Source: an uncultured delta proteobacterium
Lineage (GTDB): Bacteria > Desulfobacterota > Desulfobacteria > Desulfobacterales > JAHEIW01
Assembly (NCBI GenBank): GCA_963706575.1
Contig: CAVPNL010000006.1
Span: 608,001 to 672,000 of the forward strand
Direction: 5' to 3'
DNA length: 64,000 bases
The notes beneath the pieces were generated by a model, which was not told where the DNA came from, made no database searches, and saw only the letters and a list, made by a program, of their open reading frames with translations. The translations under genes and the position numbers were made by a program. Below, one piece after another: positions 7,419 to 34,479 of this stretch; positions within the stretch are counted from its first letter, which is position 1; the number at the start of each line of letters is the position of its first letter.

Positions 7419-7563
7419 TGGTTTAGTGACGAATTTATACTTGCGTTCAACGAATTGTTCACCGCTACGAGCTGCCAATATTTGTGAATAATGATGCATC
7501 AATCGAATTGCCGCAAACCAAAAACGAATAGACATTTCGCCATTTAGACGGGGTATCGATACA

Positions 7564-8937: not shown

Positions 8938-9005
8938 GGCCTCCGGTAAAAGATATGGTTCCTGGTCTGGCATGCTATATTTTTTATTACGGGGTATGGT
9001 TTTAC

Positions 9006-10610
9006 TTAACAGGTTCTGAAATTTCCTACCGCGGTTTTCCGCAATAATGCGATCAGCAGAAAGATCAGAGAGACTCCGATGCTCAACCATACCAGCCAAT
9101 CTCCATGTCGTGTGTAAATTGTATTAGAATTCAAGGGGATGACTTCTCCTGTTAGCATGCCCCGAACGAAGATGTCCTGACCTTCCTCAGACCTGACGCG
9201 ATCAACGACCCGGCCATAGGGGTCAATGAAGCAGGAGATCCCGGTGTTGTTGCATCGCACCATAAAAACCCGGTTTTCAATCGCGCGAAATATATTTATA
9301 GAGAGAAACTGGTTAGGGCCGGCGGATTTTCCGAACCAGGCCTCGTTGCCGATATTGACCATAAATTGGGCACCCTCTTTAATATATTGCCGGAACAGGT
9401 CGGGGAAGATGGTTTCCCAGCAGATCAAAACTCCGAAGGAGGCATTATTTATGTTAAATAAGGTGAACTCCTTGCCGGCAACATGGGAACTCTTTTTGTC
9501 CGGCACAATAAATTGAGGCCAGGGGATAATCCCCTCATAGGGGACGTACTCCGAAAAAGGGAAAAGATAAATTTTTAAATACTGGCCGAGTATTTTGCCA
9601 TCCGGCGAAAAGAAAAGCGCCGTGTTTCCGGTTTTTTGCGCCTTTAAAAGATCTTTATCGAATTTCGGAAATTCAGAACTGCCAATGATAAAATAGGTTT
9701 TTAGCTCTTTCACCAGAGAGATTGTCTGGTTCATAAGATCGAGTTTCTTCAAGATAAACCCCGGTGTGGCCGCCTCCGGCCAGATGATTAGATCCGGGTT
9801 GTCCCTGGCGGCTTTTCTGCTCAGGTCGCCATATGTTTGCATAATGACCCCGGCATATTTGGGGTCCCACTTTTTGCTCTGCTCGATATTTCCTTGCAGC
9901 ACCGATACCTTGATACTTTTTTGGGTGTTGCGCTCAGAAGATAGGGTATTTCCATACAACAGTGCCAGGGTCATCAAGACGGCAGCGCCTAATGTGATTA
10001 CGTATATGCCCCGCCTCGATGGGAAATTACCATCTGTAATTTGTTGCCATCCCAGCCGATTAAGAATTCCCAAAATTAATAAAGCCACCGCTGAATTCAC
10101 CAGGACGACCAAAAAGCTGACTCCATATGCTCCGGTTATTGCGGAAATTTGAATCAGAGAGATATTCTGATACTGGGTGTGCCCCAAAAAGGCCCAGGGC
10201 AGTGCCAGAAAAAATAATTTCCCTCTTATATACTCTAAAGCAATCCACAGAAAAGGCGCTGCCAAAAATGCAACGGTCATTTGAGCTCGGCGAATAAGAA
10301 AGGTCAACGCTAAACCAAAAATCCCAAAATACAGCGCCAAACCAAAAACCAGGATAGAATGGTGGAGAATCTCATATCCGTCCGTTTCAAGCATCCAATC
10401 GAAGACCCCGGCGAAAAAAACGAGCCCACAGATGAATGATAGAAGAAAACCCTGCATAGAACCTCTGCCTGATATAACCACGAGCAGAGGTGCCAGTCCT
10501 ATCCATGCGAACCACCATGCATTATAGTTTGGGAAGGCCAAAAAAAGTAAAACCCCGGACAGTACCGGGGCAAGAATTAAGTATAACAAGCTAAAGATCT
10601 TTGTCTTCAA
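9006..10610 (-). CDS. lnt: Apolipoprotein N-acyltransferase
   Basis: Multi-TM N-terminus, LPWAFLGHTQ, QGNI, nitrilase-fold triad WPE / YLK / ICWE, RAIEN, NTGIS. Confidence 0.9.
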   Translation of the reverse strand: MKTKIFSLLYLILAPVLSGVLLFLAFPNYNAWWFAWIGLAPLLVVISGRGSMQGFLLSFICGLVFFAGVFDWMLETDGYEILHHSILVFGLALYFGIFGLALTFLIRRAQMTVAFLAAPFLWIALEYIRGKLFFLALPWAFLGHTQYQNISLIQISAITGAYGVSFLVVLVNSAVALLILGILNRLGWQQITDGNFPSRRGIYVITLGAAVLMTLALLYGNTLSSERNTQKSIKVSVLQGNIEQSKKWDPKYAGVIMQTYGDLSRKAARDNPDLIIWPEAATPGFILKKLDLMNQTISLVKELKTYFIIGSSEFPKFDKDLLKAQKTGNTALFFSPDGKILGQYLKIYLFPFSEYVPYEGIIPWPQFIVPDKKSSHVAGKEFTLFNINNASFGVLICWETIFPDLFRQYIKEGAQFMVNIGNEAWFGKSAGPNQFLSINIFRAIENRVFMVRCNNTGISCFIDPYGRVVDRVRSEEGQDIFVRGMLTGEVIPLNSNTIYTRHGDWLVWLSIGVSLIFLLIALLRKTAVGNFRTC

Positions 10611-10678
10611 TACCGTTTTCGCTCCAATGTCTATTTTGGGGATTCAGAAGGTGGCCCGCGTGTCGGTGGTTAACGATG

Positions 10679-13189
10679 TTACTCAACGCCAACCACGATT
10701 AAAGTTAAGTCGTCATGCTGCGGCGCCCCGCCGACGAATTCATTCACCTTTTCTAAAATTTCCTTCAAGAGCGCATCCGCATCCATGGATTTCGATTTTT
10801 GAACCACCTCCTGGAGCCGCTCGAATCCATACATTTCCTCCTTTTCGTTCATGGCCTCTACGATGCCGTCCGTGTAGAATAGCACTCTGTCACCGGATGA
10901 TAGCTGAATTTTGGTTTCCTCATAGTTGGCTTCGTCTAGAATACCAAGGGGAAACGTATCTCCTTCAGTCTCGACCAGGTTGGCCTCACCGGTTTTTGCG
11001 GAAAGGTGGATGGGTTGTGTCTGTCCGGCGCTGCACAGTGTCACCGTTCGATCCCTGGAATCCAAAACCGCAAAAAGCAGCGCCACGAACATCCCGCTTT
11101 TGACATCTTTTTTAAGTCTGCGGTTGGCGCGCATCATGCTCTCGCTGACGCCAATTCTTCTTCCGACAGCATGCGGAACACACTGCGGGATGCGGACATG
11201 ACCAGGGCGCCGGAAACGCTCTTTGCCGGTCACGTCACCGATGACAAATCCCGCTTTCTCTTCACCCATGTCAATAAAATCGTAGAAATCACCACCGACC
11301 TCTCTGGCGGAAACAGAATAAGAAGCGATATTAAAACCCTGGATTTCGGGAGACTCAGCCGGAAGCATGCTCATCTGCAGGTCCCGGGCAATGTTCAGCT
11401 CCTCTTCCATGCGCTGCTTTTCCAGGTTTTCCTCGAAAAGTCTTGCATTTTCGATGGCTACGGCGCCCTGGTGTGCCAGGGTGCGCAGAAGTTCGATGTC
11501 TTCGCGGTTGAAGGGCTTGCCGGACTTCTTTTCACCGAGGTTCAAGGAGCCGATCACTTTATCCTGATAAACCAACGGAACCATCAGGCTGGCATGCAGG
11601 GCTTCAAAATTGGCGGCACATGGCTCGGAAACCTCCTTGAACTTGGGGTCTTCGATTACATCGTACTTGGTCAGCTCCTTTTTCTCCGCTTCTATAATTT
11701 CAATCAGAGGGTCATCACGCTTGAAGACCTTTTTTTCTACTTCTTCTTTTCTCTCTCCGTCTGCTAATGAGATCTGATACTCAGCTCCGGTCGAACTCAA
11801 TAACATGACCGAGCTGGTGCTGATAAACATGTCTTCAATGAAAGTTTGACTAAGGTGTTTTAGGATTTGGGGTAATTCCAAAAGAGAGGTCATGGCCCCA
11901 CCGACCCTCTCAACGATGGCGCCATAGTCGTATTCTTTTCTGAAAAAGATTCGATCCACAAGCGCTTGAATACGGTCCCGCAAAGGATTAAACACCAGAA
12001 TGACGCCTATGGTAAAAAGGATCGGAAATGCTTTGGACTGGGCCACCTGGTATTGCCCCAGAAAGAAGTTCAGGCCCACGCTAACCAAAGCATACATGCC
12101 GACAACGATGCCCGTGACGACGATATAGCCGACGGTCCGTTTTATGATCTCATCGGCATCAAAGAGGTTGTGCCGCACAATAGAATAGGCAATGGACGCC
12201 GGAAAGAAGATAACGAAGACTGCCAAAAAGTTCCACGGGAGATTATACTTTAAGAAAAAACCAAGGGTCATAACAAAAACCGGCGGCCCGAAGGCAACTG
12301 TCACCCCCCAAAAAATCACCCGTGCTCGCTGGCGGGCCTGCAGTGAAGCCGCTTTAAATCGGGTGTGAAAGATAAGGATGATCATAAAAAGCACGCATAA
12401 GAGCGTGAAAATGCGATTGATGGAGCCAAGCGTTCGATAGGTGGGGAACCACGCGTATAAATCTGAGCTCAACATCTTCTGAAAGATGGACCAATAGATT
12501 TCGTTCGCAACGATTAAAAGAAAAAATGGCACGTAAAGCAGATATTCAATGGCAGGTAGCCGATCTAAAAAACGTTTTCTTTCCGGAAATATCAGAAACA
12601 GGTGCAGCCAGGTTGCCGGATAAAGAATATTTACCACGTCGAATAGCCGGGTAGAAAAATAGGAAGATTGCTGCTCAAAGCCGGATATCATCATGGAACC
12701 CAGGCTGAAGCACAGCATCAGAAAAACCCAACTGCTGGGTGTGTTTGGTTTCAGCACATAGACGACGAAACCCAGTATGTAAAGCATGAAGCCAATCAAA
12801 AATGAAACCAGAAAGACGATAATAAAATCACCGATTCCAAATTTATCCACCTTGATTTCGACTTCACGTTTTTGGCCGTCTGTATCGATCGAATAGCGAA
12901 CGGGTGTGCCGGGTTGTTTTTCTTTAATGATATTTACGAACTGATTGCCTTCTTGAACCTGCTGACCGTCTATAGCAACGATTCGATCGCGAAATTTAAG
13001 CCCGGCTTCGGGACCCGGCCAGTCGGTTTGTCCGGAAACCGAAACATATAAATCCTTATAGACAAGAAATCCCGCAAAAGGTCTGTTTAACCAGGATATG
13101 GCACCGGCAAGAGAGATTACAATGATAACGATCATGAGGGCGAGCAAAGCAAAAAAGACTATATTATGAATTTGAATTCGGCGCTTCAT
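10679..13189 (-). CDS. PDZ + multi-TM + GAF + SpoIIE (PP2C/RsbU-like) phosphatase
   Basis: AGLKFRDRIVAIDG PDZ motif, several TM helices, GAF ending AIENARLF, VGGDFYD/GDVTGK/YTDG/HDDLT PP2C motifs; contains a short out-of-frame segment (see findings). Confidence 0.88.
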   Translation of the reverse strand: MKRRIQIHNIVFFALLALMIVIIVISLAGAISWLNRPFAGFLVYKDLYVSVSGQTDWPGPEAGLKFRDRIVAIDGQQVQEGNQFVNIIKEKQPGTPVRYSIDTDGQKREVEIKVDKFGIGDFIIVFLVSFLIGFMLYILGFVVYVLKPNTPSSWVFLMLCFSLGSMMISGFEQQSSYFSTRLFDVVNILYPATWLHLFLIFPERKRFLDRLPAIEYLLYVPFFLLIVANEIYWSIFQKMLSSDLYAWFPTYRTLGSINRIFTLLCVLFMIILIFHTRFKAASLQARQRARVIFWGVTVAFGPPVFVMTLGFFLKYNLPWNFLAVFVIFFPASIAYSIVRHNLFDADEIIKRTVGYIVVTGIVVGMYALVSVGLNFFLGQYQVAQSKAFPILFTIGVILVFNPLRDRIQALVDRIFFRKEYDYGAIVERVGGAMTSLLELPQILKHLSQTFIEDMFISTSSVMLLSSTGAEYQISLADGERKEEVEKKVFKRDDPLIEIIEAEKKELTKYDVIEDPKFKEVSEPCAANFEALHASLMVPLVYQDKVIGSLNLGEKKSGKPFNREDIELLRTLAHQGAVAIENARLFEENLEKQRMEEELNIARDLQMSMLPAESPEIQGFNIASYSVSAREVGGDFYDFIDMGEEKAGFVIGDVTGKERFRRPGHVRIPQCVPHAVGRRIGVSESMMRANRRLKKDVKSGMFVALLFAVLDSRDRTVTLCSAGQTQPIHLSAKTGEANLVETEGDTFPLGILDEANYEETKIQLSSGDRVLFYTDGIVEAMNEKEEMYGFERLQEVVQKSKSMDADALLKEILEKVNEFVGGAPQHDDLTLIVVGVE

Positions 13190-22000: not shown

Positions 22001-23852
22001 TAAGCCTCATCATCTCCACTGCCTCCCAGATATGTTGAGTAATTTAGTAATGACCCGTCCGCATTGAGTTTGCTAACAAAGGTATCCCATCCACCGTTGT
22101 TAGAATTCTGGAATGCTAGTAATGATGTCGGAAAATCGCCTGATAAAGTTTGTCCAGCAATGTAAGCATTTCCATAACTGTCAGTGGCAATAGCATTACC
22201 AATATCTTCTCCGCTCCCGCCAAGGTAAGTGGAGTACTCGAGGTCTGAGGCGTGGGGTTTAGTTTTGCCACAAAGGCGTCTAAAGGCCCGCCGAGGACGG
22301 TATCAAGGGCACCCGTGGTGACACTGAAATTGGTAGAAGCGGTTTGCCCGGTCACGTAGGCGCATCCGTCTTGATCGATAGCGATGCCGCGGATTAAATC
22401 TTCACCGCTGCCCCCGAGAAATGTCGAATAATCTAGGTCGGTTCCAGTCGTATTAAACTTGGTCACGAAAGCATCGACATTGCCCGCGGAATTCGAGTAG
22501 GCGCCAGGGGTAACCGGAAAATTTGATGACTGCGTTTCTCCGGCCACATATGCATACCCATTAGCATCGACGGCGATGGCATGACCTATTTCAGGGCCGC
22601 CTCCTCCCAGATAGGTGGAATAGATCAAGCCTGTTCCTTCTGAATCGATCTTGGCGACAAATAGATCGGAGTTTCCTCCGATTTTTGCGTCATAAGGTTT
22701 TGCCGGCGCTGTGGGAAATTTCTTCGAGCCGGTTTCCCCGGTCACGTAAGCATTTCCTTGGCTGTCAACCGCTATCGCATAAATGGCGTCGTCCAATTCA
22801 CCGCCTAAATAGGTTGACCATGCAATTTCGCCATCGGAATTTAACTTTGTAATGAACCCGTCGTAGTTACCCGCATTTGATTCATAAACACCTTCCGGTG
22901 TTGGGAGAAAGTTGGTCGACAATGTAAATCCCCCAACATATGCATTGCCTGATCCATCAACGGCCACCGCAAAAGCGCTATCTTCGTCTTCACCGCCCAG
23001 ATATGTCGAAAAGCTGAGACAAGGGTCGATGATGAGCGGCAGGGCGGGGTCATGACCGGCCACGTTAAAACCGTACGTCTCTTCTTCGAGCTTGTAGGCC
23101 ACCCGGACGAATTGTTTCTTGCCGTTTTTTTCCTGATAGGCGCGCGGTTCGCTGAAGCGAATCGCGCCGCGCGGCAATTCAATTTCGAGCTCACCGTTGC
23201 CATTAATTCGCAGGGTATCGGCGCCTTCGATTTTGAGCCTTATCATGCTGATATCGGCGCCCGGCTGAAGGGTAAAGATCTTTTCGACATTGTCCCCGTA
23301 GGCCTTGAGGGACAAATCGATTCCCGTATAAATTTCTCCCAGGCTGACCGTATTGTAGGTCGAGATTCCCGTTTTCCAATTGTTTCGATCATTACCGGTA
23401 AAGTAATTGATTTTTGCCCGGGCCCGGTCGGCTCCCTGGAGGTCTACTTTAGATACGCCAATGAGCTGCTCCCGAATGGACAGGATCTGCATGCGTTTCT
23501 TGACCATTGAATGCCGCCCGACCTTTTCTTTGGAATCCGGGATAGAAAAGGTGTAGACCAAATCGCCGCCCGCCGTGACGTAGAATTTCCCACTAAAGGT
23601 CTGGGCATAGAAGCGAACCTGTTTGCCTATTTGCCCCTCATTGGAAATGAATGGTATCTGCAGCTTAAGCGCTTCTTGAGCAATCGATGCTTTGTCAACG
23701 GGGCTTGCTTTATCACATGTAGTTGATTGAAGGGCTGCGAACGAATTTGTGGCTAAAATTAGGGATAGGCATAGGAAAGAAATAAACAGAGTTTTTGGCA
23801 GGTGGGTATTAAGTGATTTAAATAAAGAAAAGGAATGGTTTGCCGAGCTCAT
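16096..23852 (-). CDS. Giant secreted protein (~2580 aa if intact): SBBP beta-propeller repeats, TSP3-like Ca-binding repeats, DUF1565/right-handed beta-helix, Ig-like domain, C-terminal zinc metalloprotease; many frameshifts
   Basis: ATG 23852 with AGGAG RBS and signal peptide; repeated YSTYLGG...AIAVD..GNAYV.G; DADGIADQCDNCP; IYVDKNDGSD..GT..YPLKSI; beta-helix repeats; DGDGLPNWWE / LQEYxxGxNP; HEMAHALAGPSH; stop TAG 16096-16098. Confidence 0.75.
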
Positions 23853-24754
23853 TTGCCCCCCTCTCCTGAAATGATCTCTTCTCAATTAGCCCATTCAATG
23901 AAGGCGTGAACGCGTTCTGAATGGATCAAAAAATTTAAAAACCGAATCAGCTGTGTCGTTTTAATATTTCAAGGACGCTAATAAAAATCGAAGTGTAATT
24001 TAATCCTTATTGCTAAGCCCGTCTTCAATCGATCGACGGGATGTTGTTTTCCGGCACATCTAAATAATGAGGGCAAATAAATTAATGAATAAAATTAATA
24101 AGGATGCAACGGTATAAAGGATGATGCGGTATATATAATACCGAACTAGGAAAATGAGCTATTAAAATCGCCTCTTTTTGTTTAGCAATTTCCCCTCATC
24201 CTGTTATTGCCGATTAAGGATGAGGCAGATTCATCCAAAGGTTTGCTTAAATCGGGAACCTACAATAGTTCCCTTCAGGGGTTCTTCTTTGCCTTATAAA
24301 AAAGGATGCTTTTGAATCGCTGATTCTGATTCAGCATTAAAGCAAAAAAATATAGTGTCGGCGGGCACTTTCTATCGGCTGGACAAGTGTTGATTATTAT
24401 TATCAGAAACAGGATTCAATACAAGCCCAGAATTTTACGGGCAAAATACCTGGTAAAAACCCGTATTCTTTCAATGCGCTAATTAATACTAAAACCGATG
24501 TATCTAATTGTTATTTATAAAATTAATTTTAATTCGTTTAACGTTGAAAGCGCGACAATAGCGCATCAGGAATAGGGTGGAGTTAGCTTTATACAACTTC
24601 CGAGCTTTTAGTTAAAACCAACTTCGATTCAGCGGGGATCGTATATTACGAAAGATTCGATTTCTGCCTTTCGAACACAGGCATTGGTGCTATTCAAGTT
24701 AAATTTTCTAAAGTACATTATGCTGACCATGTGGTAAAAAAGGATACGGCAGAA

Positions 24755-25105
24755 TCAGGACATCACCTCCAGGGCATTTTCCACGGTTTCATGGATATCG
24801 GCAAACCGGGTGATCCCCACCATGCCAAATATTTTTTTAAAGTGACTCGAAACACCGGTAATCGCGATGTGCTGGTTGTTGCGTTTGCTCTGCGCCAGAA
24901 TCTGAATCAGGGCTGCAATTCCGCCGCTGTTGATGTAGGCCTCTTCGTCGATTTTCAGCAGGATCTTGTCCACGCCTTGAGTGCTGGCGTTCTGGTAGGC
25001 TTCGCTCAGGAACGGCTCGGAAAAAGACGTCAGGTCACCATGAATGTTAAACAGGGTGATCTCCCCGTGCTGTTCAAGATTGATTTCGTTGCTGTGCTGC
25101 TGCAT
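24755..25105 (-). CDS. STAS anti-sigma factor antagonist (RsbV/SpoIIAA-like), copy A
   Basis: 116 aa STAS; YINSGGIA with phosphorylatable Ser; HFKKIFGMVGI. Confidence 0.9.
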   Translation of the reverse strand: MQQHSNEINLEQHGEITLFNIHGDLTSFSEPFLSEAYQNASTQGVDKILLKIDEEAYINSGGIAALIQILAQSKRNNQHIAITGVSSHFKKIFGMVGITRFADIHETVENALEVMS

Positions 25106-25125
25106 GCGGTCCCCTTAAGGGGTAA

Positions 25126-25587
25126 TTACGAATTCATCTTGATGGCCATCTTGACCACGTGGCCGCCGTTGGCCCCTTCATTGAATTCGACCTGATCGGC
25201 AAGCTGTTTGATCAAAAACAAACCAAATCCAATCGGTGATTCCAAATCCTCGATGATCTTTTCGATGTCGGGTTTGGGCGGGTGCTCCTTGATGCCGTTG
25301 CCCTCGTCCGTCACTATGACATTGAGGGTATCGTCCTGGCAATTCAGCGAAACGGTCACCCGCGCATCCGGGCGCCCCTTGTTGCCGTGCTCCATGGCAT
25401 TGATGGCCGCCTCGGACACCATCGTCTTTAAGTCTTCGATGCGCTCGGCCGACAGACCCATCATCTTGGCATAAGAGGCCGAACACGCCATGGCTACCCG
25501 CTCGTAGCCCAATTGATTTAACAGGCTGACTTCTATGTTTCTATCGCTCAAATCCTTAACTTTCTCCTCTAAATCCGGTCTAGGCAA
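25126..25587 (-). CDS. Anti-sigma factor / Ser kinase (RsbW-like), copy A; true start probably TTG at 25551
   Basis: N-box SEAAINAMEHGN, G1 TDEGNG, G2 GFGLFLIKQLAD. Confidence 0.9.
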   Translation of the reverse strand: MPRPDLEEKVKDLSDRNIEVSLLNQLGYERVAMACSASYAKMMGLSAERIEDLKTMVSEAAINAMEHGNKGRPDARVTVSLNCQDDTLNVIVTDEGNGIKEHPPKPDIEKIIEDLESPIGFGLFLIKQLADQVEFNEGANGGHVVKMAIKMNS

Positions 25588-25637
25588 TTCGTTTCGGGTA
25601 TTCAGCGTGTCGTCTAAAATCGATCGACAGCAAAGAT

Positions 25638-25666
25638 ATAATAAAGAAGTGCATGAAGCGTGTCAA
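25638..25666 (-). promoter_or_regulatory. Sigma70-like promoter for RsbW/STAS copy A
   Basis: Minus strand TTGACA-17 bp-TATTAT. Confidence 0.65.
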
Positions 25667-25934
25667 TAAAATTGTTGCCCTAACCTTTTTCTTGTATTCC
25701 GGCAAGATGCTGTTCTCACTATTTATATTGAAATATAGGTCCAGGGCTCCCGGCGCATAAAAAAGGGGAACGGGGTTGATTTGTTGCGTTCCGGGGACAG
25801 GCTATGCGCGGTAATGACATGCGCGCGGACCGGCCTCTGCTTGCCGCGCCGCAGTCAAGCTTTAAGCGTGACGAAAGGGGCTGCCGGCCAGGAGAAGGCG
25901 GCTATAGTGGAACGCTTGTAATACCGATCGCGGC

Positions 25935-26035
25935 AAGATGCCGCTCCCACCTGACACCTGCCTGTCCGCCGAAGCCTTACGGGCGAAGGCGGAACACCTG
26001 CTTGTCCTCCGTAGCCTATTAGGCGAAGGAGGGAA
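25935..26035. repeat. REP-like GC-rich hairpin repeats
   Basis: ccgccgaagccttacgggcgaaggcgg and cctccgtagcctattaggcgaaggagg; related units near 2285, 4070 and 54405. Confidence 0.6.
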
Positions 26036-26053
26036 ACCTTTAATGAGCGCGCT

Positions 26054-27364
26054 CTATTCTTTAAGCGCGAATATTTCTACTTCTTCCGTCAAATTCTTAA
26101 GGGCGAATTGGCCCAGCTTCTCGAAGGAAAACTGATCTTTGACGCGCTCCATTGTTGATTTTGAAGCCAGCACCGCCCCGCCAGTGGCCTTGCCGCAGAT
26201 CCGGGCGGCAATATTGATGGTGTTGCCGTGAGAAGTGTAGGCCCAGCGCGAGCCGGTGTAGCTTTCGAATTTGGCCGCGCCCACAAATGCCTGCCCCGAG
26301 CAAATCCCGATGTTAATTAAGAGGGGAACCTGGGGCGCGGAGTCGAGGCCGCAATCATCGTTAATCAGGCAGGCCTTTTCCCGGATGGTCTGGGCGGCCC
26401 GCATCGCTTCAAGGGCGTGGACGGTATCGTCTTCGGTCAAAAAAAGAACCATCAGGCCATCGCCCGCGGTTTCAACCACATCTCCGTTGTTTTCAAAAAT
26501 GGCATCCATAAAGACCGAAAAATATTTTTCGACCAGGGCGTTGACTTCAGTGGCGCCGACGTTTTCCGTGATTTTGGTATATCCTTCGATGTCCAGAAAC
26601 AGAACCGTGACATCGCGCTCTTTGGCCTCCTGGATGTCGGCGCTGGGAGATGTTTCGATCATGCGGGTAACCGTATTGGGCACAAATTTACACAGATCAG
26701 CCTTGATGCCTTCTAAAATTTCAACCTTGCGCATGGCGGCCTTGAGCTCTTTGAGCGCTTTTTTAAGCTCAACGTTTTTGGCCTCAAGGTTACGGTTGAG
26801 TTTTTTAATCTCTTCAAACGAGCGCGCGTTTTTAAGCGCCACGATCAGGTTGTTCACCAGGGTGTCGAGCAGTTCCGCATCGTTTTCATTATACGGTTCA
26901 CCGATCAGCTTGGCCCCCAGCCCGAAGATTCCCGGCGAATCCGCCCCGACCGAAAAGCCCTGGATAAAATCCAGTGACGGCGGTAAAAAATCCTGCAGCA
27001 GCGGCTTTGCGGATTTATCAATTGATTCCGCAAAGGCATTATTTTTCAGGAGCTGCTCGATGCCGCTTTTTAAGACGGCCACCTCGTCGTCTTCAAGGCC
27101 GACCTCGACAAAGTGCCGGATGCCTCTGTCGGGCGAGTTGATGCCCAGAATGAATCCCTGGGTGACCCCGAAGTTGCCCATGGCCATGAGCAGAAAGCTT
27201 CTTAGAATTTTTTCGGATTCAACACTGCTGAAAATATCTTTGCTGACGTCATAAAGGGTCTTTAAGTAAAAGACGCGCCGGTCCAATTCGGTTTGAACGT
27301 GCTCTGCCTGCTGTAAAGCATCCTGGAGCCGTTTTACCTCTGCCTGATGATCGATTTTATCCAT
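26054..27364 (-). CDS. GAF-like domain + coiled coil + class III nucleotidyl (adenylate/guanylate) cyclase
   Basis: VTVLFLDIEG, VETAGDGLM, IGICSG, GNTINIAARI catalytic motifs. Confidence 0.9.
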   Translation of the reverse strand: MDKIDHQAEVKRLQDALQQAEHVQTELDRRVFYLKTLYDVSKDIFSSVESEKILRSFLLMAMGNFGVTQGFILGINSPDRGIRHFVEVGLEDDEVAVLKSGIEQLLKNNAFAESIDKSAKPLLQDFLPPSLDFIQGFSVGADSPGIFGLGAKLIGEPYNENDAELLDTLVNNLIVALKNARSFEEIKKLNRNLEAKNVELKKALKELKAAMRKVEILEGIKADLCKFVPNTVTRMIETSPSADIQEAKERDVTVLFLDIEGYTKITENVGATEVNALVEKYFSVFMDAIFENNGDVVETAGDGLMVLFLTEDDTVHALEAMRAAQTIREKACLINDDCGLDSAPQVPLLINIGICSGQAFVGAAKFESYTGSRWAYTSHGNTINIAARICGKATGGAVLASKSTMERVKDQFSFEKLGQFALKNLTEEVEIFALKE

Positions 27365-27369
27365 AAGCC

Positions 27370-27834
27370 TTAAAAAGTTACCGAGCGGACGAGGTTCATG
27401 AAGTGAAGTTTGATTTCCTTGCGGGATTCCTTAAGACGTTCAAGCAGTTTCTGGGCAAGGTTGTTCATCATGACGCAGACCAGGCCGGGGTCTTCCTGCT
27501 TTAGTTTTTCTAAATCTTCGCGTTTGAAGACCAGCAAATTGCTGTCCCGGGCCGCGCGGGCGGAGAGGCTGTAACGAAAAGGGGAGACCAGGGCGCTGAT
27601 GCCAAAGCAACCGTTTTTGGCTCTGACCATGGCGATGGGAATTTCGATTTTCTCGTCCACAAGGGTCAGAAGCTCGATGGCACCCTCCTTGATGAGGTAG
27701 AAATGCCGGGCTTCCTCATCCTCGCGAAAAAGCCACTTCCCTTCTTGAATCTTTTGCTCCCGGGAAATTGCAAGAACGCGTTGAAGCTGAGTTTCGGAAA
27801 GGCGATCAAATAGGTAACACGAAGAAAGCGGCAT
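27370..27834 (-). CDS. Stand-alone cyclic nucleotide-binding domain protein (no HTH)
   Basis: LFREDEEARHFYLIKEGAIEL...CFGISALV..RYSLSARA cNMP fold; start at 27834 has a GGGAG RBS. Confidence 0.85.
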   Translation of the reverse strand: MPLSSCYLFDRLSETQLQRVLAISREQKIQEGKWLFREDEEARHFYLIKEGAIELLTLVDEKIEIPIAMVRAKNGCFGISALVSPFRYSLSARAARDSNLLVFKREDLEKLKQEDPGLVCVMMNNLAQKLLERLKESRKEIKLHFMNLVRSVTF

Positions 27835-27965
27835 TGTTATTCTCCCAAGTAAGCTTCTGCCGGGCTTGGCGCAATGATCTCCCTGACTAGCAGCCACGGC
27901 GATCTGGAATCTAGCGGTTCAACCCCGGTCCCCGGAATGGCCGCCAAGATGCTACCGATTGCGGC

Positions 27966-28313
27966 TTAAGCCATCTGTTGCAGCGCATCTTCTAAAGAAT
28001 CGTAAATCTGGGCAAACTTGGTGATGCCCACCATATGGAAGATCTTCTTAAAATGTTCAGAGATGCCGGTGATTCCAATCACCTGATCGTTTTTGCGGGT
28101 CTGGGCCAGAACCTGGATGAGTACGGCAATACCGCCGCTGTTAATATACGCATTGCTGTCGAATTTCAGCAGGATTTTGCCGGCTCCCTGGCTGCTCGCA
28201 TTCCGGTAGGCATCATTAAGGAAGGGTTCAGAAAAGGCGGTAACATCGCCCTGGATGTCCATAATCGTGACCGCATCGCGGGTTTCAAGCTTTATTTCGT
28301 TAACTTCCTGCAT
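27966..28313 (-). CDS. STAS anti-sigma factor antagonist, copy B
   Basis: YINSGGIA motif; near-colinear with copy A. Confidence 0.9.
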   Translation of the reverse strand: MQEVNEIKLETRDAVTIMDIQGDVTAFSEPFLNDAYRNASSQGAGKILLKFDSNAYINSGGIAVLIQVLAQTRKNDQVIGITGISEHFKKIFHMVGITKFAQIYDSLEDALQQMA

Positions 28314-28327
28314 CTTCCGACCTTATG

Positions 28328-28759
28328 TTAAAGTTTGATGGTCATTCGTACAAAATTAGCGCCATCGGCGGTTTTATCGATTTCGACTTGATCGGCCAGC
28401 TGCCGGATTAAAAACGTGCCGAATCCGACCGGCGGGTCCTCTTCGTTGACGATGCGCTCAATATTCGGATCGGGAAGAAACCCCTTAAATCCTTCTCCCT
28501 GGTCCATCACGGTAACCTGGATGGCGTTATCCTTAACCATCATCGAAACCTTGACCCGGGCATCCGGCCGTTCTTTGTTGCCGTGTTGCATGGCATTGAT
28601 GGCCGCCTCGGCGACAATGGTTTTTAAGTCCTCGATGCGCTCAGGGGCAAGGCCAAGCATTTTGGCATAGCTCTCCGCAGACGCCATGGCAATGCGTTCG
28701 TAACCCACCTGACTGGGCAAATTGATTTCAATGTGTTGCTTGTTTGATGGGGGGGGCAT
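28328..28759 (-). CDS. Anti-sigma factor / Ser kinase (RsbW-like), copy B
   Basis: AEAAINAMQHGN, MDQGEG, GFGTFLIRQLAD. Confidence 0.9.
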   Translation of the reverse strand: MPPPSNKQHIEINLPSQVGYERIAMASAESYAKMLGLAPERIEDLKTIVAEAAINAMQHGNKERPDARVKVSMMVKDNAIQVTVMDQGEGFKGFLPDPNIERIVNEEDPPVGFGTFLIRQLADQVEIDKTADGANFVRMTIKL

Positions 28760-28842
28760 TATTCTGAGATTCTCTTATCCAATCTGTTGTCGTGAACAAA
28801 AGGGACCAAGAATTACTTCATAAGGTTCATCAAGGCGATGTC

Positions 28843-28871
28843 ATCTTAAGAGAGCGATCAAGATCTGTCAA
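28843..28871 (-). promoter_or_regulatory. Sigma70-like promoter for the RsbW-B/STAS-B/cNMP/cyclase genes
   Basis: Minus strand TTGACA-17 bp-TAAGAT. Confidence 0.65.
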
Positions 28872-28885
28872 TATAAAAATCGGGT

Positions 28886-29992
28886 TCAATTGAATTGCGA
28901 AATCCTTTCTATCCAGCGCTTAAATAAAACATCCTGAATCGAATAAAGTTTGTTTTTTGAAACCAGCTCTTTCTTGAAAAGCAATTCTAATGCTTTTGAC
29001 ATCTGCGAAGCAGATCTGAACCCCAACCTGGCCAGATTATCCGCAGAGTAAATATTCTTCCCGCCGGCTGCCGCAATTAATTTCAACGCTTTTCTCTGGT
29101 TCAGTGTCAGAGATTCCCATATATTGATGAATTCCGCTTCCCTGTTTTTCAGAATCTTTGATTCTACCCGATCAATATCTTCAATCGAAATATCCGGGGC
29201 ATCCCATAAATTAAAAAAGAACTCCTGGATGTACATGGGGTGGTTTTCACAGCGGGATACCACATTTTCGATATATCTTTTGTTAATGTTGCGCTTGTCC
29301 TTTTTATAAAGCCTTTTGATCCATTTGACATAGTCTTCCGTATTGATTTTTTTTAAGGAATAACTGGTTGCCAATTTATAAAAAGCCCGTTTCGAATCTG
29401 CGAACATTTCGGCCAGCAGATGTTTCTGACTCCCGGCAAAAATGTATGAAATATGGTTGTGCCGCTGGATAGATTTCCGCAGATGTTTTTCAAAGGCCGC
29501 CTCACCGTATTTTGAAATTTCCTGAAACTCGTCAAAAGCAACGGCAAGCTTTTTCTTTTGCGAAAGAGATTGGAGTAAGGCAAAAATCTCGTCTATCGCC
29601 GGTCTTTTATCAACGGGTGCAAAGACCGGAATCGCCACAGGAGCGCCGGTGTAAATATCGATGCTAAAATTCATTGTTAAACTGCTGATTCCTTCTTTAA
29701 TTATTTTCATCAGCTTATCCATTTTAGATTCTATCTGGCTTATCCCTTTGAGCAGTGCTGTAATAAAATCTTCGATGCTGGTGGTTCCGTACAAATCGAT
29801 ATAAATGGTTACCATACCGTTGATATCCTTAAAGACCCGATTAATGAGGGATGTCTTCCCGAAACGGCGATGAGAATAAAGCAAGACGTTTTGAGAATTT
29901 TCAATAAATTTGATTAAATCAGTTTGCTCTTTCTCCCGGTTACAAAATGCAGGATCTTCCACGATGCCGGAAAAGGAAAATGGATTTTTCAT
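28886..29992 (-). CDS. AAA/archaeal-type ATPase domain protein with C-terminal wHTH-like region
   Basis: FCNREKE, Walker A SHRRFGKTS, Walker B AFDEFQ, AGSQ, HPMYIQ. Confidence 0.8.
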   Translation of the reverse strand: MKNPFSFSGIVEDPAFCNREKEQTDLIKFIENSQNVLLYSHRRFGKTSLINRVFKDINGMVTIYIDLYGTTSIEDFITALLKGISQIESKMDKLMKIIKEGISSLTMNFSIDIYTGAPVAIPVFAPVDKRPAIDEIFALLQSLSQKKKLAVAFDEFQEISKYGEAAFEKHLRKSIQRHNHISYIFAGSQKHLLAEMFADSKRAFYKLATSYSLKKINTEDYVKWIKRLYKKDKRNINKRYIENVVSRCENHPMYIQEFFFNLWDAPDISIEDIDRVESKILKNREAEFINIWESLTLNQRKALKLIAAAGGKNIYSADNLARLGFRSASQMSKALELLFKKELVSKNKLYSIQDVLFKRWIERISQFN

Positions 29993-30182
29993 TGAACCCC
30001 TTTATAAAAATATATTATTGGCGACTCACTTTTAATGTAAAATTATTTCATAATTTGTGAAAAATCAAGACATATATTTATTTTTCTGAATTCAAAGTAA
30101 ACTTGAATATCCGGGAAATATATTTTATCTATCAAAATTAATAGAAGCAATTAACCTTTTTGCTGAAACAGATGCGGGATTT

Positions 30183-31124
30183 ATGGACTCGCCGCCGACC
30201 TCACAAGACATATACAGCCTGCTTGCCATCGGTTCTGCCGAAGAGGTTCTGAGCGAAGTGCTGGAGATTCTAAAGCGGATATCTTCCGATTTCAGCACCG
30301 GGCCGATCCGTGATATTTTTGAAGCGGTGGGGCGCCTCTACAGCGGGAATTTTGCGGGCTACCGAGCCTGCAACACCGGATACCACGATCTGCGTCACGC
30401 CATCGAAGCCTTCCTTGCCATGAGCCGGTTGATCCACGGTGCCGTGCTGGACAACCAATCCTTTAGCGAAAGGCAAATTATCACCGCCTTGATCGCCGCC
30501 ATCCTGCATGATGTCGGCTATATTCAGGAAGAATCCGACACCCGGGGCACCGGCGCCAAACATAAGGCCGATCATGAGCAGCGCAGTATGGACTTTTTAA
30601 GCCGCCACGGTTTCCAATTCGGACTGTCCGAAGAAGAGATCGCTGCCGGCCGTATGATCATTCTGTGCACCGATATGGATTCCGATATCACCACGATCGC
30701 CTTTCCTTCCCCACAGGTAGAACTGCTGGGGAAGCTGCTGGGCACCGCCGATCTCATGGCGCAGCTGGCCGAGCAAACCTATTTGGAAAAGCTGCTGTAT
30801 CTGTATTATGAGTGCAGGGAAGCCGGGGTGGGTGATTATGAGAGCGAGGTGGATATTCTGAGAAAAGCCGTCGATTTTTACGACGTTTTCGAAGCGCGCC
30901 TGAGAACAACACTTGACGGTGTTGATCGATTCATGCAGCTGCATTTTGCATCCAGGTGGGGCATTCATCAGGATCTGTACCATGAGACCATCAACGAGCA
31001 GAAGGATTTTCTTTTAAAGATATTAAAAAAACCGAATAGCGATCCACGCGATTACCTGAAACATGGCGACATAGTCAAAAAAATCCACGAAACCTACCAC
31101 AAAAACACACCCAAACAGCGTTAA
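30183..31124 (+). CDS. HD-domain metal-dependent phosphohydrolase
   Basis: GYHDLRH, AILHDVGY, HEQRS, GTADL motifs. Confidence 0.85.
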   Translation: MDSPPTSQDIYSLLAIGSAEEVLSEVLEILKRISSDFSTGPIRDIFEAVGRLYSGNFAGYRACNTGYHDLRHAIEAFLAMSRLIHGAVLDNQSFSERQIITALIAAILHDVGYIQEESDTRGTGAKHKADHEQRSMDFLSRHGFQFGLSEEEIAAGRMIILCTDMDSDITTIAFPSPQVELLGKLLGTADLMAQLAEQTYLEKLLYLYYECREAGVGDYESEVDILRKAVDFYDVFEARLRTTLDGVDRFMQLHFASRWGIHQDLYHETINEQKDFLLKILKKPNSDPRDYLKHGDIVKKIHETYHKNTPKQR

Positions 31125-31168
31125 TCCTCATCCTTAAACCCTTGCTTATATTATAATGCAGGGCCTTC

Positions 31169-31197
31169 TTGACAACTCGAATCTGTTTTTCTATATT
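31169..31197 (+). promoter_or_regulatory. Sigma70-like promoter upstream of the GAF-histidine kinase
   Basis: TTGACA-17 bp-TATATT. Confidence 0.6.
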
Positions 31198-31323
31198 GGG
31201 CGCTTCAAAGATCTGATTCTCCTCTTCTTACTTCACCGGCGTCAGTCAAGGGCGTTATTTTCGTTGCATTGTTAGTGCGTCAAATCGAATTTTGCTGTTA
31301 AAAGGGTTTAGGAGCGGGATTGA

Positions 31324-32827
31324 ATGGATCCCTTTAAAGACGCAAAGACCGACAGCCAGATCTCCTCTTCGCCTGAAGCGGCCGAGGCCGAAAATGAACG
31401 GCGTCTGTTTCACCTCAAAACGCTCTACGATGTCAGTCGCGAACTATTGGGCGTTGTCGAAATCAAAACCATTTTAAAAAACTTTTTGCTCATGACCCTG
31501 GGGAATTTCGGGGTTGTCGAGGGCATCCTTTTAACGCATGACCCCCATTCAAGGGAAAAAAGCCAGCTGGTCACCATCGGAATTCAGGATGATGATAATG
31601 CGTCCATATCAAAGGGCGCTATAGACTTTCTGGCAAATCACAACCCGGGAAACGCTATCCTTGCAGAAGAAGAGCGCCGGCGACTTAAATTTTTGCCCCG
31701 GGCGGTTGAATGTGTCGCCTGCTTTTCGGTTGACCGAGGATTATGTCGGCCTCCTGGGGCTCGGTTCAAAAATTGTCGGTGATCCCTATAACAATGAGGA
31801 CAGGGATCTTCTGGAAACCCTGGTAAACAACCTGATCGTTTCTCTCAAAAATGCCAGATCGACCGAAGCCCTGAAAAATGCCTATGAAGAACTTGCCGTT
31901 TTAAACCGCGCCAAAGATAAATTGATCGACCACCTCTCCCATGAATTGCAAACGCCCCTCGCCGTTTTAAAAACATCGATGACCCTGCTGCGAAGAAAAC
32001 TGGCCTCCGTGCCTGAGGAGCAATGGCAACGGATCGTAGAACGGGCAAGTCGAAACCTCCAGCGACTGGTGGACATGCAAATTGAAGTCGAGGATATTTT
32101 GGGAAACCCGGTGGCCCGGAATTACCATGCTGTTTCGGGCTTAATCGATCAGTGCGCCGACGAACTGGAAGTGCTCGTTGCCGAGCAGACCGGAGATACA
32201 GCGGTGATCGCGCGGGTCCGGCAGCGGATCGAAGAGATATTCGGGCCGCGGGAGGCAGTTGCCGAAGACATTGTTCTGGAGGAATTCGTCAGAGAAAAAA
32301 TAAAGAAGATCGAACCCCATTTTTCGCACCGCCAACTGGAGTTGATCATTGATACAGATCGGACAGAGGTGGTGCACATTCCCCCGGAGCCGCTTGAAAA
32401 GCTGGTCATCGGTTTGATTAAAAATGCGATCGAAAATACGCCGGATGAGGGCAAGATTGAGGTGAAGGTCAAAAATCGGGATAGTGCCGTGGCGTTTGCC
32501 GTCCATGATTACGGCGTCGGCATTATCGAAGAACATCGCCAGCGCATATTCGAAGGCTTTTTCCCGACACAGGATACGATGGACTACTCGTCAAAGAGTG
32601 CTTATGATTTCAATGCCGGGGGCAAGGGGGCCGATCTGCTGCGGCTAAAGATATTTTCCGAGCGATTTGATTTTAAGCTGGATATGTCCTCTTCAAGGTG
32701 CCGCTATATCCCGCTTGCCACCGACATGTGCCCGGGCCAAATCAGCCGGTGCCAATTTTGTAAAACCATCGAAGATTGCCACCTCTCCGGAGAAACCCGA
32801 TTCACAGCCGTTTTTAAAGCCCATTGA
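31324..32827 (+). CDS. GAF-like domain sensor histidine kinase; one frameshift near 31735
   Basis: ORFs 31324-31782 and 31661-32827 join if one C is removed (gtt gac c gag gat tat); H-box LSHELQTPL, N-box LIKNAIEN, DYGVGI. Confidence 0.85.
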
Positions 32828-32880
32828 GCAATGCGTCAAAACCATACGCCATCCTTTTTCAATTTGTTCTCCAATATTAT

Positions 32881-33036
32881 TAGAAGCTATCTTAAAAATA
32901 GTAGATTACGTCCAAGGGTGCGACGTAAACCGATTCAAAACTCGTGTGTCCGAGCATACACGATAGTATTCGAGTATTTTGAATCGGTTTACAACAAAGC
33001 CCTTGGGCGTTAGATGCATTTTTGAGATAGCTACTA
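32881..33036. mobile_element. MITE-like element with terminal inverted repeats
   Basis: TAGAAGCTATCTTAAAAAT ... ATTTTTGAGATAGCTACTA; internal palindrome ccgattcaaaa...ttttgaatcgg. Confidence 0.65.
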
Positions 33037-34479
33037 GATTTTGCGCTGGACCGTCAGCATGGTAATATCGTCTTCTTGCGGGGCTTTGCCGATGTGAGAA
33101 AAAAGATGGGTACCAATTCGTTCCATGAGTTCAAATGCGCTCGATACGGGTTGGGACAACAAGGTGCTCAATCGCCTTCGGCTAAAACGCTCTTCTTCCG
33201 GCGAGCGCGCATCAATGACGCCGTCCGTGTAAGAAAACAGAATATCGCCGGGGTTGAGCTGAATCTGTTTATATTTGAATTGCGCCTGAGGGTACAATCC
33301 GACAGCCGGTCCGGTTGACAGGAGCTCTTCTTTAATACCGTTTTGATCAATGACAAATACCGCTTCATGCCCGCCGCTGACATAAATCAGCCTGCCGTTT
33401 TTTGGATCCAAAACACCAAAGAAAAGCGTTGCAAACATACACATCTCACCGTGTTCCTGGGCGATGTAATCATTGGTCAGCGCAACCGCACGGATGGCTT
33501 CAACCTGACTGTATTTTCGAACCGAAGCGGAGTCGAGTGTGCCGCCGACGGTTTGCGATTTTTTGTCGATAAGCGATCTGCTCAATTGCGCCTGACCGGC
33601 AAATATGCGGATTAAGCTTCGAATCAGCGCCATGAAAAGCGCCGACCCCACCCCTTTATCACAGACATCACCGATGACCAATCCGGTGTAACCGCCCGGC
33701 AATACAAATGCATCGTAAAAGTCACCGGAAACCCGACTCGCCGGGAAAAAAAATTCCTCAAGATACCAATTGTCCAATTGCGGCAATTTCTGCGGTAAGA
33801 AGTCTTTTTGAATTTGGCGGCATTTTTCCAGCTCCCGGTCGAGTTCCTGCGAATAGGCTTCGATCTGTTTGTTGGCTTTTCCCAGTGACTGAAGCGAATC
33901 ATTGAGGCTGTTAAAAAAGTATACATTTTCCAGAACCAGAGCCATCTGGTTTGCCGTGATATTGATGAGCGCTACGATTTTGTCGGTGAAATGATTGGGC
34001 CTGGAATGCATCAGCGTCAGAACTCCCAACAGCATGTCATTGCTGATGATCGGCAGGGCCAGAGCCGAGCGAGCCATGTATGGCTGATCGGGAAGCATCA
34101 ACCAGCGCTCATCCTTTTCGGTGTCATGGACCAGACCGATTTTGCGATGATGCATGACCCATCCGGCCAGGCCTTCTTTAAATACCGATTTGATAAGCGT
34201 GGAACTGAGATCAGGAGAGATTTCTCCGCGGGATAAGATACTGTCGACTACCAGGCCATCGCTGTCGATCAGGATGAGACTGCCAAGTTCTGCTCCGGTC
34301 AGCTCGGTTGCGATGCAAATTGTTTCGCGCAGCATGGCTGTAGTGACTTCGGGTTCATCCGGAGACCTTGCCATGGAAATGAACTTTTCAAACAGCACGG
34401 ACTGGGCCTGAAACGCGGCCACCACTTCCTCCGTGCTGAGAATGCTGCTGACTTTAGGGTTGATATCCTCATGAGTCAT
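33034..34479 (-). CDS. GAF + SpoIIE (RsbU-like PP2C) phosphatase
   Basis: GAF (GLAGWV...LGVLTLMH), VSGDFYD, GDVCDKGVGSALFM, YTDG, EDDIT. Confidence 0.9.
   Translation of the reverse strand: MTHEDINPKVSSILSTEEVVAAFQAQSVLFEKFISMARSPDEPEVTTAMLRETICIATELTGAELGSLILIDSDGLVVDSILSRGEISPDLSSTLIKSVFKEGLAGWVMHHRKIGLVHDTEKDERWLMLPDQPYMARSALALPIISNDMLLGVLTLMHSRPNHFTDKIVALINITANQMALVLENVYFFNSLNDSLQSLGKANKQIEAYSQELDRELEKCRQIQKDFLPQKLPQLDNWYLEEFFFPASRVSGDFYDAFVLPGGYTGLVIGDVCDKGVGSALFMALIRSLIRIFAGQAQLSRSLIDKKSQTVGGTLDSASVRKYSQVEAIRAVALTNDYIAQEHGEMCMFATLFFGVLDPKNGRLIYVSGGHEAVFVIDQNGIKEELLSTGPAVGLYPQAQFKYKQIQLNPGDILFSYTDGVIDARSPEEERFSRRRLSTLLSQPVSSAFELMERIGTHLFSHIGKAPQEDDITMLTVQRKI

Follow-up and report, generated by a model that had tools for sequence, protein, structure and literature searches.

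RsbU/V/W partner switches normally gate a sigma factor. To our knowledge, many bacteria carry RsbU/V/W sets without SigB, the outputs of which are mostly unknown. Control by STAS proteins without a sigma factor has been described: phosphorylation of SiaC on T68 blocks its binding to SiaD, and a glycosyltransferase is under sigma-free STAS control (parts of PMC8457831 and PMC13555669, respectively). Here we describe a locus from an uncultured delta proteobacterium in which two RsbW-STAS pairs lie beside a class III nucleotide cyclase and a histidine kinase. The window, meaning the whole stretch analyzed, is 64 kb long (G000:C6:608001-672000) and comes from a genome of 5.67 Mb that is 92% complete; G numbers denote genomes, C numbers contigs and L numbers loci of relatives, and residue numbers are those of the window proteins. 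The genes and their linkage are conserved, the catalytic residues are intact, and a common GAF motif recurs on the enzymes. We put at about 0.62 the probability that unphosphorylated STAS docks on this shared GAF, here called the docking GAF, and so would directly switch the cyclase, the kinase and a PP2C phosphatase with no sigma factor, a reading that draws on structural modeling.

All genes named in an earlier note on this DNA were found at their window coordinates by open reading frame (ORF) and Pfam scans, the latter covering 42 window ORFs. The principal features are as follows, with the basis of each assignment in parentheses (CNBD, cyclic nucleotide-binding domain).

24755..25105, minus strand: STAS-A, 116 aa, YINSGG, acceptor Ser kept (Pfam STAS, alignment)
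25126..25587, minus strand: RsbW-A, GHKL Ser kinase (HATPase_c_2) with N, G1 and G2 boxes intact (Pfam, alignment)
26054..27364, minus strand: docking GAF (residues ~15-204), coiled coil and class III cyclase (Pfam, alignments, models)
27370..27834, minus strand: stand-alone CNBD-fold protein, 154 aa, degenerate phosphate-binding cassette, conserved C-terminal helix (Pfam, alignment)
27966..28313, minus strand: STAS-B, 115 aa, Ser59 equivalent to RsbV Ser56, predicted GAF docking (Pfam, alignment, model)
28328..28759, minus strand: RsbW-B, GHKL Ser kinase with Met where RsbW has Arg23 (Pfam, alignment)
30183..31124, plus strand: HD protein, class I cyclic-nucleotide phosphodiesterase-like fold (profile, predicted model, alignment)
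31324..32827, plus strand: docking-GAF histidine kinase (HisKA, HATPase_c, Cys-rich insert), frameshifted (Pfam, alignment)
33034..34479, minus strand: GAF-PP2C (SpoIIE), catalytic motifs intact, ordinary GAF without the docking motif (Pfam, alignment)
10679..13189, minus strand: membrane PDZ-GAF-PP2C, compensated double frameshift (Pfam, alignment)

As in canonical partner switches, the STAS antagonists carry an acceptor Ser, and the kinase and PP2C catalytic motifs are intact. The Ser is retained across the stand-alone STAS rows, Ser59 of STAS-B aligning with Ser56 of RsbV; the RsbW boxes (E..N, DxGxG, GxG) and the PP2C motifs (GDFYD, IGDVCDKG, YTDG, EDDIT) are preserved, and STAS-A and STAS-B are 61% identical. 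The Bacillus subtilis RsbW Arg23-RsbV Asp23 pair is Met-Thr in RsbW-B and its STAS, a substitution that suggests an insulated kinase-STAS pair. We first took the Arg23 to Met change as possible evidence that sigma binding had been lost but abandoned this idea, Arg23 being described as contacting RsbV Asp23 and not SigB (part of PMC7340262). An Atlas search with STAS-B returned generic STAS clusters. No STAS-GAF fusion was found among the 120 listed of 153 longer STAS homologues (118 receiver-STAS, 2 TIR-STAS), which is weak evidence. Two proteins, P0392 and P0393, fuse a STAS of the module subfamily (60-68% identity) to a TIR domain, and three relatives encode, directly before the cyclase, an additional STAS variant (YFNSEG) that lacks a kinase partner (L040:9437-9808, L048:9604-9969 and L054:9636-10016).

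A search anchored on the cyclase yielded 33 loci, of which L060 and L061 were set aside because they match at 28-29% identity and in the cyclase domain only; among the remaining 31, L057 and L059 belong to one genome, and some loci duplicate genomes of a set of 41 close genomes. The named relatives are Desulfobacterales, Desulfobacteraceae and other Desulfobacterota metagenome-assembled genomes, and subfamily membership was assigned by profile scores. The neighborhood is conserved across Desulfobacterota, a check that the earlier note had proposed: STAS and RsbW each flank the cyclase in 27 of the 31 loci, accompanied by the CNBD protein in 20, HD in 6 and the GAF-kinase in 5. A homologue of the membrane PDZ-GAF-PP2C lies inside the locus in 8/31, which upholds the suggestion that this distant second phosphatase belongs with the module. 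The best 74 STAS-anchored loci of 534 metagenome relatives hold RsbW in 71, the CNBD protein in 38, the docking GAF in 37, the cyclase in 26 and HD in 10; among the 24 that are at least 4 kb long, 20 have the GAF and 19 the cyclase. Module STAS is present in 12/12 of the close genomes with the GAF-cyclase (one of them truncated at a contig end), three fragmented genomes having STAS only, and 301 genomes of the order divide into 28 with both, 4 with STAS only, 13 with GAF only and 256 with neither. Clustering of switch and cyclase genes is not due to chance, because the STAS subfamily and the GAF-cyclase sit together in relatives despite matches scattered over the contigs of G000 (24 SpoIIE, 20 class III cyclase, 9 STAS). 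Mere co-inheritance of signaling genes, with no physical link between switch and GAF, would suit a genome so rich in SpoIIE and cyclase genes, the gene order shuffled among relatives and the patchy distribution in the genus (8/21 for the cyclase query). Nevertheless, the STAS-GAF pair outlasts rearrangement, output swaps and RsbW loss, and its complex model passes while controls score zero (see below), and we consider mere co-inheritance the least probable of the alternatives.

The motif FLLxxxG marks one GAF subtype, present on the cyclase (as FLLMAMGNFG), on the histidine kinase and, 4.5 kb to the left of the window, on a PP2C (C6:602170-603549), the N-terminal domain of the cyclase being 41-42% identical to those on the kinase and PP2C. 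Neither the docking GAF nor the HD protein matches a Pfam family at E 1e-4; identification as a GAF comes from weak PDB profile matches (DevS GAF, E 3e-4) and predicted topology. A continuous helix (H160-225) links the docking GAF to the catalytic domain in the cyclase model, the pocket region is the least conserved part, and two Thr residues (T36, T168) are conserved. The subtype also occurs in relatives on a sigma54-type AAA/Fe-S protein and on rhodanese-like proteins. At L050:5150-7048 a single protein combines a docking GAF with a sigma54-activator-type AAA domain and a 4Fe-4S motif and is encoded divergently from two RsbW-STAS pairs. The left-flank PP2C is followed by a PAS-LuxR regulator and a GAF-PP2C that is 68% identical to the window GAF-PP2C (G000:C6:602170-606734, L001:12170-16734), and these three genes belong to the module network. 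Close to its end, the ATPase domain of the kinase contains a conserved insert rich in Cys (C-x8-C-x6-C-x2-C-x5-C; window 32660-32800), possibly a metal or Fe-S site; no response regulator gene adjoins the kinase within the window.

We know of no solved STAS-GAF complex, and PDB relatives of the docking GAF are not described with STAS. The modeling of STAS with the cyclase that the earlier note had called for supports docking. A three-chain model of the cyclase GAF dimer (residues 15-204) with STAS-B, based on alignments that we supplied, scored an ipSAE of 0.63 (0.65, 0.61, 0.63) versus 0.00 for the best of three controls, with contact agreement of at least 94% and a partner pLDDT of 86. The mark it reached was attained by 116/157 solved and 2/215 mismatched pairs, counts that apply only roughly to three chains with our own alignments. 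The predicted interface comprises L58-T68, D28/R29, F32, K35/T36, G89 and K152 of the cyclase and T25, E29, N58-V64, Q67 and K90-F100 of STAS; within it the STAS segment N58-V64, including Ser59, packs on cyclase L58-G66, the FLLxxxG motif. Interface positions are better conserved than the rest on both sides (0.65 vs. 0.43 and 0.80 vs. 0.52), and the kinase, PP2C and rhodanese GAFs share them; the two other GAFs of the locus lack them. RsbV contacts RsbW through D23, Y53, S56, R84/R87 and I91 (part of PMC7340262), and the GAF-binding face predicted for STAS is this same RsbW-binding face. Because both partners use an equivalent face, RsbW and the GAF would compete for STAS.

Based on these features, the membrane and soluble PP2Cs would dephosphorylate Ser59 of STAS and the RsbW-type kinases would rephosphorylate it. 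Free, unphosphorylated STAS would dock on the FLLxxxG helix-loop of the cyclase, kinase and docking-GAF PP2C, docking that phosphorylation would block and for which RsbW would compete by occupying the one STAS face. Docking would probably shift the register of the coiled coil between GAF and catalytic domain, switching the enzymes without a sigma factor, and docking on the docking-GAF PP2C would give feedback. By analogy with SiaC we guess, leaning only slightly that way, that docking activates. The earlier proposal that the switch gates both cyclase and kinase is probable on this model, with STAS on the common GAF as the candidate contact and the gating itself a prediction.

In the most distant whole-domain matches to the docking GAF, a rhodanese-like domain is attached to one GAF or to GAFs in tandem, and these matches led to a second operon family. 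We retrieved 20 stretches (L062-L081) from 19 genomes with weak GAF or STAS matches, 16 of which hold both domains. Nine of the 13 GAF-only genomes, together with G200, carry beside the GAF gene a receiver-STAS fusion that belongs to the same subfamily (10/10), and one of the three stretches chosen on STAS alone shows a GAF. Genes in this family typically run in the order periplasmic binding protein, sCache histidine kinase, receiver-STAS, CxxC redoxin, GAF(s)-membrane-rhodanese-like protein and MauE/DoxX (e.g. L063:4008-10182), which may constitute a two-component-controlled thiol or redox module; in the receiver-STAS, Gly replaces the phospho-Ser. RsbW was found in 0/20 of these stretches, and none of the module subfamily was found in the 19 genomes (13 with no match, 6 with weak ones; best E 1.9e-8). 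With profiles built without second-family rows, the STAS domains score 70-131 bits versus 22-43 for other STAS of the same genome, and the best GAFs 56-115 versus at most 36 for other GAFs. STAS domains of this sequence type thus stay with the docking GAF though input, output and RsbW all change; the two travel together, since the second family keeps both without RsbW.

This family bears on two other explanations. The kinase itself could be the effector, released RsbW binding or phosphorylating the GAF enzymes in the manner of RsbT with RsbU or with the Moorella diguanylate cyclase. The presence of RsbW beside STAS in 71 of the best 74 STAS-anchored loci, the Moorella RsbT homologue's action in phosphorylating a downstream diguanylate cyclase (part of PMC4976288) and the conserved GAF residues T36 and T168 would all be in accord with such a role. 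It is nonetheless highly improbable given that in the second family STAS and GAF persist although RsbW is missing from the locus and the genome holds no member of the subfamily, and that STAS docks in the complex model, where the STAS-GAF pairing alone was modeled. Alternatively, STAS could bind the GAF with the signal reversed or with the GAF as a sink, the GAF proteins sequestering or presenting STAS, or relaying a ligand or cyclic nucleoside monophosphate (cNMP) signal to it, while the true output is freed RsbW or STAS elsewhere. The second-family GAF would suit this, sitting on a membrane protein with a probably noncatalytic rhodanese beside redoxin and MauE/DoxX, a sensor- or tether-like setting; so would the docking GAF on a PP2C, upstream in the switch, and the tandem GAF copies, which fit titration. 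The continuous helix H160-225 from GAF to intact catalytic domains is, however, the usual input-to-output architecture, and together with the poorly conserved GAF pocket and the kinase-less extra STAS directly before the cyclase in L040, L048 and L054 it makes a reversed signal or sink unlikely.

The enzymes to be gated were also characterized. The cyclase output domain is class III (PF00211), with the metal-binding D258 and the transition-state pair N384/R388 invariant and the other metal-binding residue, D302, nearly invariant over 56 rows, and its model matches the CyaB fold with a root mean square deviation of 2.6 Å. This agrees with the original assignment as a class III mononucleotide cyclase, to which is added a guanylate-type Glu (E298) at the first purine-specificity site in 63/64 homologues, the remaining one being unparsed. 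In alignments E298 falls on the Cya2 Glu, a position held by Lys in CyaB and CyaC; at the second specificity site Thr (T377) predominates, followed by an unusual His or Arg. Natural guanylate cyclases combine Glu with C, S, T, H, A or G (part of PMC4215837).

In contrast, a complete writer, reader and eraser module, as the earlier note had proposed, is not supported in that form: the CNBD is degenerate, HD is present in 6/31 loci, and canonical readers lie beside the cyclase in some relatives only. Departing from canonical CNBDs, the cassette Glu is found in 0/55 homologues and the Arg position is Tyr (54) or His (1); the nearest structure, 3mdp, has the same degenerate cassette. Because the Glu is absent and Tyr or His replaces the Arg, this protein is probably a protein partner and not a conventional reader. 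The likely readers, judged by their cassettes, are a cNMP-Ser/Thr kinase directly downstream of the cyclase in 4/31 loci and an MMPL-cNMP-degenerate GGDEF protein upstream in 7/31, both with canonical cassettes; G000 encodes a homologue of the latter 5.9 kb left of the window (C6:598938-602126, L001:8938-12126). Genes for the cNMP-Ser/Thr kinase are found at L034:11265-12551, L035:11333-13093, L041:11323-12918 and L051:11299-13068 (with PilZ in L051), and at G000:C16:13307-14761; following a Glu-type cyclase, it is a possible bacterial cyclic GMP (cGMP)-gated kinase. The HD protein has as its best PDB profile matches PDE5 (E 0.004), and its model (pLDDT 92) retrieves, among the listed Foldseek matches, exclusively class I phosphodiesterases (TM ~0.5). 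It has the class I metal-ligand set (H..H, HD, HE, D) and helical fold, with H68, H72, H109, H131 and D190 in 76/76 rows and D110 in 75/76; F232, a candidate for the hydrophobic clamp, is invariant, and residue 229 is Ala or Ser where, by sequence register only, the purine-reading Gln is expected. The model suggests that it likely hydrolyzes the cyclase product, so that a role as eraser is credible by fold, though not general.

Several points weigh against direct switching by STAS docking. The second-family rhodanese-like domain has Gly at what we take to be the catalytic Cys position, and because that rhodanese apparently lacks the catalytic Cys, the membrane-anchored GAF may only tether STAS in this family. 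Interface conservation is not independent of the model, which used our alignments, and complex modeling covered the STAS-GAF pairing, so that other contacts (RsbW-GAF, CNBD-cyclase, RsbW-sigma) may also occur. The loci are kin with shared ancestry and their counts are not independent events; the module is rare, the GAF profile matching 1/200 other genomes phylum-wide. STAS is missing from 4/31 cyclase loci, three of them short or at contig ends and the fourth, L055, 20.9 kb long. As for the product, cGMP is likely and not certain, because Thr predominates at the second site and the Ma1120 cyclase, when engineered to carry Glu/Thr, still favored ATP (part of PMC4215837). Finally, cyanobacterial kinases of the RsbW kind target remotely encoded sigma factors, Anabaena NfsS binding SigC and SigE (part of PMC13712970).

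The last point would fit a canonical switch in which RsbW is the anti-sigma factor of a remote sigma (FliA, RpoH-like, extracytoplasmic function or RpoD), the cyclase cluster feeding it or being coregulated. Candidates exist, as G000 has 13 sigma70-region-2 matches, read from sequence as RpoD, two RpoH-like, FliA (in the flagellar cluster, and confirmed) and extracytoplasmic function sigmas, and FliA occurs in 13/15 STAS-positive genomes of the 41-genome set. On the other hand, the earlier statement that the window holds no sigma factor extends well beyond it: no sigma family was detected among the 42 window ORFs by Pfam, nor a sigma gene in 125 loci (31 + 20 + 74) by BLAST with five sigmas of the same genome at E 1e-6. 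The cognate SigB/F/G-type sigma of a canonical switch was found neither in these loci nor, over the TIGR02980 cut-off, in the three genomes G000, G025 and G035, and FliA is absent from the module-carrying G025 (91% complete) and G035 (95%). A remote sigma would also leave unexplained both the retention of STAS with the GAF after RsbW loss and the complex model, and we regard it as distinctly improbable. STAS docking on the GAF remains our preferred reading.

The remaining features around the module are as follows.

25638..25666, minus strand: sigma70-like promoter consensus TTGACA-17-TATTAT 5' of RsbW-A, 11/12 matches (consensus match only)
28843..28871, minus strand: sigma70-like promoter consensus TTGACA-17-TAAGAT 5' of RsbW-B (consensus match only)
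28886..29992, minus strand: AAA ATPase, ATPase_2-like (Pfam)
9006..10610, minus strand: Lnt-like acyltransferase (Pfam)

A 466-bp gap separates the GAF-cyclase from RsbW-A/STAS-A. Promoter-like sites precede RsbW-B, RsbW-A and the kinase, and such sites total 19 versus 15.0 +/- 3.2 in shuffles, which is not clearly above chance. The AAA ATPase gene sits between RsbW-B and HD in the window; these two are adjacent with no AAA between them in L030, L083 and L086, a homologue occurs in 1/33 cyclase-found loci (L045), and two paralogues lie elsewhere on the contig. It is probably a local insertion outside the module. The Lnt-like acyltransferase and membrane PP2C (region 6045-13189 of the window) occur together beside RsbW-STAS in 7/31 loci, joined by a B12-dependent radical SAM gene in the relatives L040 and L053; this company hints at an envelope or lipoprotein input. 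The GAF-histidine kinase is present as first described, but its gene is split by a +1 frameshift near 31737-31739. The intact orthologue in L030 has 501 aa, the contig of a related strain is one base shorter across this stretch, and none of the contigs overlaid on the gene bridged the frameshift at high identity. The double frameshift of the membrane PP2C falls after GDVTGK, and both lesions are probably assembly errors. A beta-propeller gene at window 22116-23885 is likewise apparently broken, its end being out of register, and a GAF-PP2C at G000:C2:38997-40427, for example, lies in several pieces, which suggests frequent indel errors in the assembly. Window 39774-43463 encodes another class III cyclase, of STAND type (zinc ribbon, cyclase, AAA_16, TPR), unlinked to the module here.

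The locus represents a real conserved system and a new form of STAS-gated cyclase control with a specific docking hypothesis, the docking itself being a model prediction. It offers a named output for SigB-less switches, namely two small domains and the interface predicted between them, and the FLLxxxG motif may be used to spot further targets. If the docking is correct, GAF domains gain a protein-docking role, STAS gating reaches beyond diguanylate cyclases to histidine kinases and class III cyclases, and one switch controls several enzymes through a common GAF. The locus also provides candidate components of a bacterial cGMP system, which would be rare, and a candidate class I-like phosphodiesterase from bacteria. 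More tentatively, and with the odds somewhat against it, this GAF subtype could be a portable, ligand-free STAS receptor through which one switch (or a receiver-STAS) gates its own phosphatase together with a guanylate cyclase and a histidine kinase, within a cGMP circuit that includes a cNMP-gated Ser/Thr kinase and a eukaryote-like phosphodiesterase of class I.

Our literature search, mostly without subscription papers or supplements, found no STAS-GAF docking or STAS-gated class III cyclase, and the terms cyclase, GAF and cGMP do not occur in a review of STAS-only proteins (PMC8256260). Among the individual parts, the cyclase shares the homodimeric class III catalytic domain of Synechocystis Cya2 (PDB 2w01), CyaB (3r5g) and CyaC (1wc0), E298 corresponding to the Cya2 Glu; the second site is Gly in Cya2 and Thr here, as in CyaB and CyaC. 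The HD protein has the metal His/Asp set and helical fold of class I phosphodiesterases (PDE1, 4, 5, 9, 10), from which it differs in being a stand-alone bacterial protein of 12-17% identity with an apparent Ala, by sequence register, in place of the purine-reading Gln. The switch has the same folds, phospho-Ser and STAS face as B. subtilis RsbU/RsbP-RsbV-RsbW-SigB (part of PMC7340262), but has no SigB/F-type sigma and Met-Thr in place of Arg23-Asp23. In the Moorella thermoacetica stressosome-diguanylate cyclase system, a STAS/kinase module is also adapted to second-messenger control (part of PMC4976288); there an RsbT-like kinase phosphorylates the cyclase, whereas the window encodes no RsbR-like protein and the evidence favors STAS as the binder. 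In P. aeruginosa HsbR-HsbA-HsbD and Sinorhizobium meliloti BgrSTUWV-BgrR, the phospho-state of a STAS protein controls a second-messenger cyclase, as proposed here, but both systems control diguanylate cyclases, and the consulted portion of the source mentions no common docking GAF (PMC8457831). Closest is P. aeruginosa SiaABCD, in which a PP2C and a small kinase control whether a STAS-fold protein is phosphorylated, with no sigma factor involved, and unphosphorylated SiaC binds the N-terminal part of the cyclase via its phospho-site helix, as is predicted here; in both, the residue before the phospho-site is Asn (SiaC N67-T68, STAS-B N58-S59). In contrast, SiaD is a GGDEF diguanylate cyclase bound on its stalk helix and SiaC is a DUF1987 protein with Thr (part of PMC8457831), as opposed to a GAF on a class III mononucleotide cyclase and a PF01740 STAS with Ser, and here the GAF recurs beyond the cyclase, on a histidine kinase, on a PP2C, on rhodanese-like proteins and on a sigma54-type AAA/Fe-S protein. 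The module therefore works like SiaC-SiaD but lies outside that system in both output and partner type.

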